64,000 bases of DNA, taken from the sequence record NC_028448.1, one strand, 5' to 3'. How positions within the stretch are numbered: the stretch's first letter is position 1; every line of letters starts with the position of its first letter. The notes below the pieces were generated by a model. The model had not been told where the DNA came from. It saw only the letters and a program-made list of their open reading frames with translations, and ran no database searches. Of this stretch, positions 5,195-6,434 are shown piece by piece. The DNA comes from Escherichia phage slur14. Position numbers and translations under genes: made by a program.

Positions 5195-5668
5195 TTATTT
5201 GAATGATTTGACGTACTGAATAGAACCTTTACTATTCACGAAAGCGATTTTACCATTTTTATTATACATGGTAGCAGTACGCTGATAGCCATAAGTTTGT
5301 TTACCAGATTGATAACCAACTAATGCGAAATTATCTTCACCCATTTTATTCTGTTTAGCGCGAATACGTTCATGACCGTGTGCCATAAGAACCTTAGCAT
5401 CACCAGTTGAAATTGATCTACGAGTTTTTTCATCTTCAACTGTATTAACAAAGTCGTCAAATGAATCAAATTTAGCATGGGATTTATTATACAGTTTTCC
5501 ATCTACTGCATAATTATATCCCTGTACATCCATCTCAACTTCTGTACCATCATCCAATACAGCAGTAATTTTTTGACCTTTTTTAAATTTCAAAAGATCA
5601 GTAAAAGATTCAGCAATAATTTGAGAATTAATAGCTGCTTCAGTGATAAATTCTTGATATGTTTTCAT
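5195..5668 (-). CDS. internal-protein-like protein with capsid targeting sequence
   Basis: 157 aa; N-terminus MKTYQEFITEA... with ITE|A and IAE|S motifs typical of gp21-processed T4 internal proteins. Confidence 0.6.
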   Translation of the reverse strand: MKTYQEFITEAAINSQIIAESFTDLLKFKKGQKITAVLDDGTEVEMDVQGYNYAVDGKLYNKSHAKFDSFDDFVNTVEDEKTRRSISTGDAKVLMAHGHERIRAKQNKMGEDNFALVGYQSGKQTYGYQRTATMYNKNGKIAFVNSKGSIQYVKSFK

Positions 5669-5677
5669 ATGTTTCCT

Positions 5678-6094
5678 TTAAATGTAAATATTTTTGCCGT
5701 AATACTTGTACCAGTGTGGCTTCATTAAAATTTTTTCATCGAGTCGTTGTTGACTCAATTTAATAGCTGATTTGCATGGATTATAATCATTTTTCCATTC
5801 TGCTGGAATATCGCTGATGTCAGGAACTTCAGTATCTTTTATACTAAACCCACGTTTTAAGCATTCCGTTATAATGTCTGATTGACGCTTTCGCAAAAAT
5901 TCTAACTTATCGTAAAAGAACTTAACATGACCAGAGCCTAAAATAAACTCGGAAGATATTTTAAAATCTTTAACCCGCTTACCATTTGCCACATGTTTAC
6001 GAACTATACCAAAAACACGCGGCAATTCACGATACTCAGCCATAAGATGTTGGTCGGTCAGTTCAGAAACAAGTGTTAAATTGATACGAGTCAT
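5678..6094 (-). CDS. denV: endonuclease V (pyrimidine-dimer DNA glycosylase)
   Basis: 138 aa from ATG 6094 (GGAGGAAA RBS); [29 protein letters not shown]... matches T4 DenV as recalled. Confidence 0.9.
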
Positions 6095-6121
6095 AATTTC
6101 CTCCAAGTAGTTGATGAATGT

Positions 6122-6151
6122 ATAGTATCAAAGTCCTTGGAGGAAGTAAAC
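6122..6151 (-). promoter_or_regulatory. T4-type early promoter upstream of denV
   Basis: Minus strand GTTTAC-18nt-TACTAT with TG at -14. Confidence 0.6.
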
Positions 6152-6152
6152 A

Positions 6153-6434
6153 CTATTTTTCTGAAGCGCCTGAAATATATTTTTCAAGACGTTGTTTCAT
6201 TAGCGAGCCGTTCTTAGCGATTTCTTCTGGTTTATCGCACATACGCAACAAGGCTTCAAGCTTAACGATATCGCTGGTACGTTCAAATTTGCGAGTATCT
6301 ATCTTACTAGCAAGTTCAGAAATACGTGCTAATAGACTTTCAGCTTCAACCAAAGCTGCACCTAGCTTAGTTGCAAATGTGTCAGTAGCTTCGTTAAGAA
6401 TAGATTCTGATAAAAATTCACTATATGTTTTCAT
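6153..6434 (-). CDS. internal-protein-like protein with capsid targeting sequence (position of T4 ipII/ipIII)
   Basis: ATG at 6434 overlapping the e stop (ATGA); [16 protein letters not shown]... with LSE|S and LNE|A motifs. Confidence 0.6.

Follow-up and report, generated by a model that had tools for sequence, protein, structure and literature searches.

The window analysed here is the whole 64,000-nucleotide stretch of Escherichia phage slur14 (NC_028448.1). Near its start, two genes whose products begin with a capsid-targeting sequence (CTS) flank denV. Both lie on the minus strand, at 5195-5668 and 6153-6434, exactly where a first-pass annotation made from the sequence alone had placed them. 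Window positions 4400-7000 match Escherichia phage slur03 (NC_042129, Tequatrovirus) at 100% identity, and ime09, Kha5h, slur07 and others at 97-99%. In the RefSeq annotation of slur03, the minus-strand genes read in the sense of transcription are nudE, e, "internal head protein", denV, "internal virion protein" and vs.8; the records of ime09 and Kha5h use the name Ip4 or ipIV for the last internal-protein gene and give the 93 amino acid gene as RB69ORF127c. With the two genes called Ip5-like and ip4, the transcription order is e, Ip5-like, denV, ip4, vs.8. Both genes thus sit between e and vs.8, one of the two variable internal-protein (IP) loci. The features that concern us are as follows (a slash in a protein sequence marks a putative processing site).

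6431-6919, minus strand: gene e, T4 lysozyme, 162 amino acids (Pfam Phage_lysozyme; RefSeq)
6153-6434, minus strand: Ip5-family internal head protein, 93 amino acids (phrog_3499; RefSeq "internal head protein")
5678-6094, minus strand: denV, endonuclease V, 138 amino acids (Pfam Pyr_excise; BLASTP, 77% to T4 DenV)
5195-5668, minus strand: ip4, 157 amino acids, DUF7412 (Pfam PF24183; phrog_3155; RefSeq "internal virion protein")
5637-5695, minus strand: shared leader DNA block, Shine-Dalgarno sequence plus CTS codons (blastn; alignment with T4 ipII/ipIII)
6062-6541, no strand: mosaic tract, Mosigvirus-like (sliding identity against APCEc01)
10812-11285, minus strand: third leader-bearing open reading frame (ORF), MKSYAQFLNE/AVLNE/A, 157 amino acids (motif scan; phrog_2280 "unknown function")
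14649-14936, minus strand: ipI, 95 amino acids (phrog_4363, 1.8e-48)
43937-44575, plus strand: gp21 prohead protease (Pfam Peptidase_S77, 1.5e-111)
44606-45415, plus strand: gp22 scaffolding core protein (Pfam T4_CASP, 1.7e-89)

The start of the 93 amino acid gene differs between sources: the program-made ORF list begins it at an upstream TTG (6449), while the annotated start is an ATG at 6434, which overlaps the stop codon of e as ATGA. The start of ip4 lies 9 nt past the denV stop and is preceded by the ribosome-binding site AAGGAAA. Two antisense ORFs were considered as coding and rejected. They lie at 6118-6462 and 5477-5728 (plus strand), where the neighboring genes are all on the minus strand. 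The first, moreover, has no counterpart in the ip5 homologue of PP01, at 50% identity, and the minus-strand reading of 6153-6434 therefore holds. A stretch of 150 nt 3' of ip4 that looks intergenic was likewise rejected as a separate element, since it is the disrupted 5' end of vs.8. Relative to T4, vs.8 (window 5041-5183, minus strand) is split by an 8-bp deletion that shifts the frame (T4 ...cttatagagcttatagagaagaa...; slur03 ...tttagagag--------aataaa...), so that an N-terminal remnant of 33 amino acids (ORF 5052-5153) is separated from the main ORF, which is shortened and annotated from 5041.

The product of 5195-5668 begins MKTYQEFITE/AAINSQIIAE/S, and that of 6153-6434 has a 10-residue leader followed by /SILNE/A. 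Strict [LI]-x-E sites occur after residues 10 and 20 in the former and after residues 10, 15, 30 and 40 in the latter. In T4, according to a review of the leader experiments, targeting depends mainly on residues 4 and 7 and processing on residues 8 and 10, and ten leader residues suffice for the packaging of foreign proteins. Both leaders retain Y4, F7, I/L8 and E10, so that each protein has the CTS of about ten residues, with aromatic residues at 4 and 7, L/I at 8 and E at 10, that marks the class. This agrees with the earlier claim that both ORFs carry a capsid-targeting leader with L/I-x-E motifs. The conservation extends through the families. In the Ip4 family, down to 60% identity, M1, K2, F7 and E10 are invariant or nearly so, and E20 is conserved too, with a second hydrophobic-x-E site at residues 18-20; in the Ip5 family the invariant or nearly invariant residues are M1, T3 and F7. 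When all six frames of the 64 kb are scanned for M-K-[TSA]-[YFW]-x-x-[FLIY], there are six matches, four of which start ORFs of 93-157 amino acids (at 5195, 6153, 10812 and 14649, the last being ipI). These four leader-bearing ORFs bear out the estimate of at least four putative injected proteins in the window; those at 5195, 6153 and 14649 belong to the classical internal-protein loci. The processing proteins, gp21 protease and gp22 scaffold, are both encoded in the window, and the machinery needed by the leader is therefore present.

How do the two proteins relate to the internal proteins of T4? In transcription order T4 has e, ipIII, ipII, denV, vs.8 (on the map vs.8, denV, ipII, ipIII, e), just as the first-pass annotation had given it from denV to e. 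In T4, ipIII and ipII both lie between e and denV, with no IP gene between denV and vs.8, whereas here one internal-protein-like gene lies on each side of denV, as had been noticed from the sequence. The locus, the leader and the transcription unit of the e promoters are the same in T4, and the presumed route of packaging, cleavage and injection would by analogy be the same as well. The bodies of the proteins differ. Pairwise alignment with the T4 internal proteins leaves only M1, K2 and F7 invariant, the DNA comparison with ipII and ipIII matches only the leader and CTS, and we find no similarity beyond the leader between either protein and T4 IPI, IPII or IPIII. Near-identity to T4 IPII and IPIII in the canonical order, the outcome that would have overturned the earlier description, can thus be rejected, since the leader alone aligns and the mature domains are unrelated. 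T4 IPI* (Ip1, the inhibitor of GmrSD from E. coli CT596) belongs to the same class of leader-bearing injected proteins; its similarity to Ip4 and the Ip5-like protein is again confined to the leader, and an ipI gene is itself present in the window. The leader resemblance is not due to chance: the 5195-5668 gene shares its first 26 coding nt, and the 27 nt that precede them, with the T4 ipII leader without a single difference. In blastn against T4, the block 5637-5695 matches ipII over 59 nt at 95% and ipIII over 47 nt at 94%. This block is likely to be a recombination joint for cassette exchange.

The product of 5195-5668 is readily assigned to a family. It matches Pfam DUF7412 (PF24183) over residues 1-157 with 318.2 bits (cutoff 27; 1e-95) and phrog_3155 "internal virion protein", and it is 98% identical to UniProt Q38388, "Ip4 [Enterobacteria phage K3]", which is also its sole significant structural match in BFVD. 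The K3 protein and those named ip4 or ipIV in ime09, Kha5h, PP01 and T2 are 98-99% identical over the full length and have the same leader. A tblastn search finds Ip4 in 469 phage records. About 305 of these have it at 95% identity or higher, including T2, RB10 and PP01, and about 160 at 60-80%, in Klebsiella (Jiaodavirus), Salmonella (Gelderlandvirus) and Serratia phages. Most Tequatrovirus carriers have ip4 in the same place as here, downstream of denV; in T2, by contrast, it directly follows e and denV is absent, and in Jiaodavirus and Gelderlandvirus it adjoins e. The predicted mature Ip4 is basic (pI approximately 9.1-9.3, 22 Lys+Arg, 15.5-16.5 kDa), and an AF2 model built from the family alignment is mixed alpha/beta (pLDDT 73). 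The Ip4 profile has no significant match among the sequences of solved structures (best E-value 0.53, no significant aligned stretch). An exhaustive HMMER search retrieves just seven representatives among 1.84 billion proteins and thus gives no link from Ip4 to a larger superfamily. The distant relatives start with MNFEQFLNES or MNFKDFLNES, a variant leader (MNFxxFLNES) in which F-x-x-F-L-x-E is retained. In one case, JGI metagenome contig 3300044579 (139-1215 of the compared segment), a distant DUF7412 protein with the leader MNFKDFLNES lies directly 3' of a denV-like gene (157 amino acids, weak Pyr_excise match). Because this relative adjoins a denV-like gene, the pairing of denV and ip4 may be old, and the adjacency hints at an origin that predates the genus Tequatrovirus.

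The 93 amino acid protein matches phrog_3499 "internal head protein" (1.2e-46). In end-to-end alignments covering 90-100% of the length, it is 52% and 49% identical to Ip5 of PP01 and MLF4, and 48-49% identical to Ip5 of T2 and RB70 (UniProt Q38378). Ip5 of RB70, T2, PP01 and wV7 has the same leader type, with a second I/L-x-E at residues 13-15. For the protein encoded here, a small mature form (approximately 8.6-9.2 kDa) of near-neutral charge is predicted, and the AF2 model from the family alignment is an all-helical three-helix bundle (pLDDT 79), a predicted helical fold class that the named Ip5 proteins appear to share. A profile search against the sequences of solved structures gives nothing significant (best E-value 0.009, no significant aligned stretch), nor do NCBIfam and PADLOC searches with both proteins. 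The position of the gene is different from that of classical Ip5: in RB70, T2 and PP01 the latter takes the place of ipI in the other IP locus, between 57B and trna.4, while the gene here lies between e and denV and overlaps the e stop. It lies outside the 57B/ipI locus and is therefore an Ip5-family member in a different slot. Judged by its sequence, 6153-6434 is a divergent Ip5-family allele in the e-denV slot, of the RB69ORF127c type that is common to Mosigvirus at 97-100% nucleotide identity. In phage BYEP02 (OR757454.1) the Ip5-like gene matches in two pieces, with a 49 amino acid fragment protein (P0026) annotated, and appears interrupted or duplicated.

We compared the locus with those of other phages to locate the boundaries of the exchanged segments. 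In blastn against ECO4, the Ip5-like gene stands out as a clean indel of 283 bp (6153-6435). Against T2, both the Ip5-like gene and denV are absent and ip4 comes after e. Against T4, homology ends where e ends and resumes immediately 3' of ip4, at the point just past the denV stop in T4. In a sliding comparison with Mosigvirus APCEc01, identity rises to 97-100% over approximately 480 bp (about 6541 to about 6062). This segment takes in the 3' end of e, the Ip5-like gene, the spacer and the first 30 nt or so of denV; in the e and denV flanks the identity is only 58-87% (mostly 60-80%). Because a tract of such high identity is set in such divergent flanks, it is, on the evidence of the alignments, the signature of a recent inter-genus exchange with crossovers in the flanking genes. 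The other cassette joint is apparently marked by the ip leader within the end of denV, where the last denV codons are formed by the conserved leader (...GKNIYI-stop here and ...GKAIYA-stop in T4). The identity of denV itself to T4 denV is 76% in nucleotides and 77% in protein, compared with approximately 95% in DNA for the flanking genes. This divergence, together with its absence at the T2 position, indicates that denV behaves as a mobile module of the IP locus.

The comparison shows that the e-to-vs.8 locus has two cassette slots, one between e and denV and one between denV and vs.8, which are variously filled:

T4: e-denV slot, ipIII and ipII; denV-vs.8 slot, empty
slur03: e-denV slot, Ip5-like; denV-vs.8 slot, ip4
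ECO4: e-denV slot, empty; denV-vs.8 slot, ip4
T2: e-denV slot, ip4 (denV absent); no entry for the denV-vs.8 slot
APCEc01: e-denV slot, Ip5-like; denV-vs.8 slot, three leader-bearing ORFs
KEN37: e-denV slot, ip4 and IPIII-like; no denV annotated nearby

The same boundaries show the slots apparently exchanging their contents through recombination at the leader/CTS DNA block and in the flanking genes. The first-pass remark that the IP loci are hypervariable agrees with the literature: Arbiol et al. (2010), with reference to Repoila et al. (1994) and Comeau et al. (2007), mention over 30 variants of internal proteins at two very variable loci, together with conserved sequence elements that may promote their shuffling. 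Melville is another of the compared phages with an alternative slot filling. In APCEc01, the ORFs between denV and vs.8 (2968-3955 of the compared segment) begin MKMYQEFIIE..., MKTYKEFIAE... and MKTYQEFITE..., making four putative internal proteins around denV when the Ip5-like one is counted; GenBank calls all of them hypothetical. As to frequency, the contiguous denV-ipII-ipIII-e layout of T4 is found in 49 phage records (coverage at least 80%), and the e/Ip5-like/denV junction in 237. T4 is therefore the unusual case. The full slur03 combination occurs in 20 records, representing about 15 distinct phages. The families are already named (Ip4 and Ip5, in the 1990s) and annotated; the feature is a known one and its configuration is common.

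Just upstream of e, the minus strand carries two T4-type late-promoter motifs (TATAAATA, 6946-6953 and 6933-6940), the only exact ones within the e-to-vs.8 transcription unit. Over the whole window TATAAATA has 24 matches, compared with 9.6 expected by chance. The ip4 gene lacks an exact late promoter immediately in front of it. T4 has the same TATAAATA pair upstream of e and no exact copy directly upstream of ipIII or ipII, and the regulatory layout is therefore the same. A scan for sigma-70 promoters and terminators gave no enrichment over shuffled sequence.

The analysis establishes what the sequences look like, which families they belong to, how the locus is arranged, where the cassettes end and that gp21 and gp22 are encoded; expression, packaging, cleavage, injection and an anti-defense function of the two proteins are what we infer. 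Both genes would belong to the e unit and be transcribed leftward, late in infection, with initiation at the TATAAATA pair that precedes e. Translation of the Ip5-like gene would be coupled to that of e via the ATGA overlap, and ip4 would be translated from its own Shine-Dalgarno sequence, 9 nt after denV. By what holds for T4, the 10-residue N-terminal CTS should direct both proteins to the prohead, into its gp22 scaffolding core, where gp21 would cut after Glu10; a second cut is possible in each, after Glu20 for Ip4 and after Glu15 for the Ip5-like protein. Once matured, they would then remain in the head with the DNA and be injected along with it. In the host they most likely neutralize a first-response defense, as Ip1-3 do. 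T4 Ip1, Ip2 and Ip3 each inhibit a different variant of GmrSD, the type IV restriction enzymes that attack glucosyl-hmC DNA, without cross-protection (PMC12373910), and ipIII is required for infecting ECOR17 (Srikant et al.). By analogy with these proteins, an injected anti-defense role of Ip4 and the Ip5-like protein is likely; that the two have different host-defense specificities, as was suggested earlier, remains a matter of the same analogy. We put the probability of the reading as a whole, in which T4-type internal head proteins, Ip4 and a divergent Ip5 allele, are made late, packaged, cleaved and injected against host defenses, at roughly 0.85.

Could the leaders be vestigial, so that the genes are ordinary cytoplasmic accessory genes, early or late, whose products are not packaged? 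That ip4 has no late promoter of its own fits such a view, but T4 ipII and ipIII likewise lack their own TATAAATA. Moreover, the leader residues named above are kept across both families, the F-x-x-F-L-x-E variant persists in the distant Ip4 relatives, and ten T4 residues are enough to package foreign proteins; we regard vestigial leaders as highly improbable. A different view accepts packaging and takes the proteins to be mainly structural parts or DNA counterions that aid head assembly or the packaging and ejection of DNA, instead of defense inhibitors. The basic charge of mature Ip4 would suit this role, as would its unusual conservation between genera, and reviews report that T4 IPIII mutants show slower head assembly and smaller bursts and that internal-protein lysines contact DNA phosphates. 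However, the mature Ip5-like protein is close to neutral, T4 internal proteins are dispensable on laboratory hosts (review), and three of the three internal proteins of known function are specific restriction inhibitors (PMC12373910). The presence of ip4 and the Ip5-like gene also varies among near-identical phages, which fits accessory rather than structural genes. A mainly structural role therefore seems unlikely to us.

If the two proteins are injected inhibitors, as we prefer to think, GmrSD need not be what they inhibit; the target could be another modification-dependent nuclease, abortive infection or a signaling system. The ip4-10 genes, which we liken to ours by gene name only, did not reproducibly inhibit the eight active GmrSD systems against which they were tried (Silas et al., PMC12373910), Ip4 is present in Klebsiella, Salmonella and Serratia phages, and the predicted folds show no clear resemblance to any known inhibitor. 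Yet the GmrSD family is very diverse and the sample tested small, every internal protein with a known target acts on GmrSD (PMC12373910), and no positive evidence points to another target, so that a defense other than GmrSD is possible for the pair but not what we would expect. For Ip4 there is a further consideration. It is 60-99% identical across Tequatrovirus, Gelderlandvirus, Jiaodavirus and a Serratia phage, unlike a fast-evolving, strain-specific inhibitor. Because it is conserved over at least four genera, and because a variant leader persists in its distant relatives and, in one of these, the neighborhood of a denV-like gene as well, Ip4 may not be a strain-specific GmrSD inhibitor. 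It is tempting to speculate, against rather long odds, that Ip4 is an old, broadly acting injected effector directed at a conserved host function or a widespread non-GmrSD defense, and that denV-ip4 is an ancestral arrangement that T4 has lost.

Host immunity encounters the internal proteins before any other phage protein. Three of them, T4 Ip1-3, have by now been recognized as specific anti-restriction factors, and there are many other IP variants, Ip4 and Ip5 included. The present locus adds no new kind of element, and its value lies elsewhere: T4 is an atypical reference for the e-to-vs.8 region, with its two cassette slots around denV, and the Ip5-like tract is a clear example of an IP cassette swapped between two phage genera. 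What remains of interest is the targets of Ip4 and the Ip5 family. Since Ip4 is both common (469 records) and conserved, it is a sensible next candidate for target hunting.

Farther along the window, the third leader-bearing ORF (10812-11285) has its own exact TATAAATA at 11326-11333, 41 nt upstream, and its predicted mature product has a pI of approximately 9.5. In RefSeq it is listed as "hypothetical protein RB32ORF133c". Its leader suggests an internal protein that has escaped annotation; the gene is located away from both classical slots, in the interval from e.8 to the tRNA cluster. The tRNA cluster (window approximately 12040-13000, corresponding to slur03 segment 13643-14601) differs from that of T4 (segment 9174-10531). 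In slur03 ten tRNAs are annotated, with His, Asn, Tyr and Met added relative to T4 and without Ile and Gln. An HNH endonuclease gene adjoins the slur03 cluster, while T4 has segB inside its cluster of eight.
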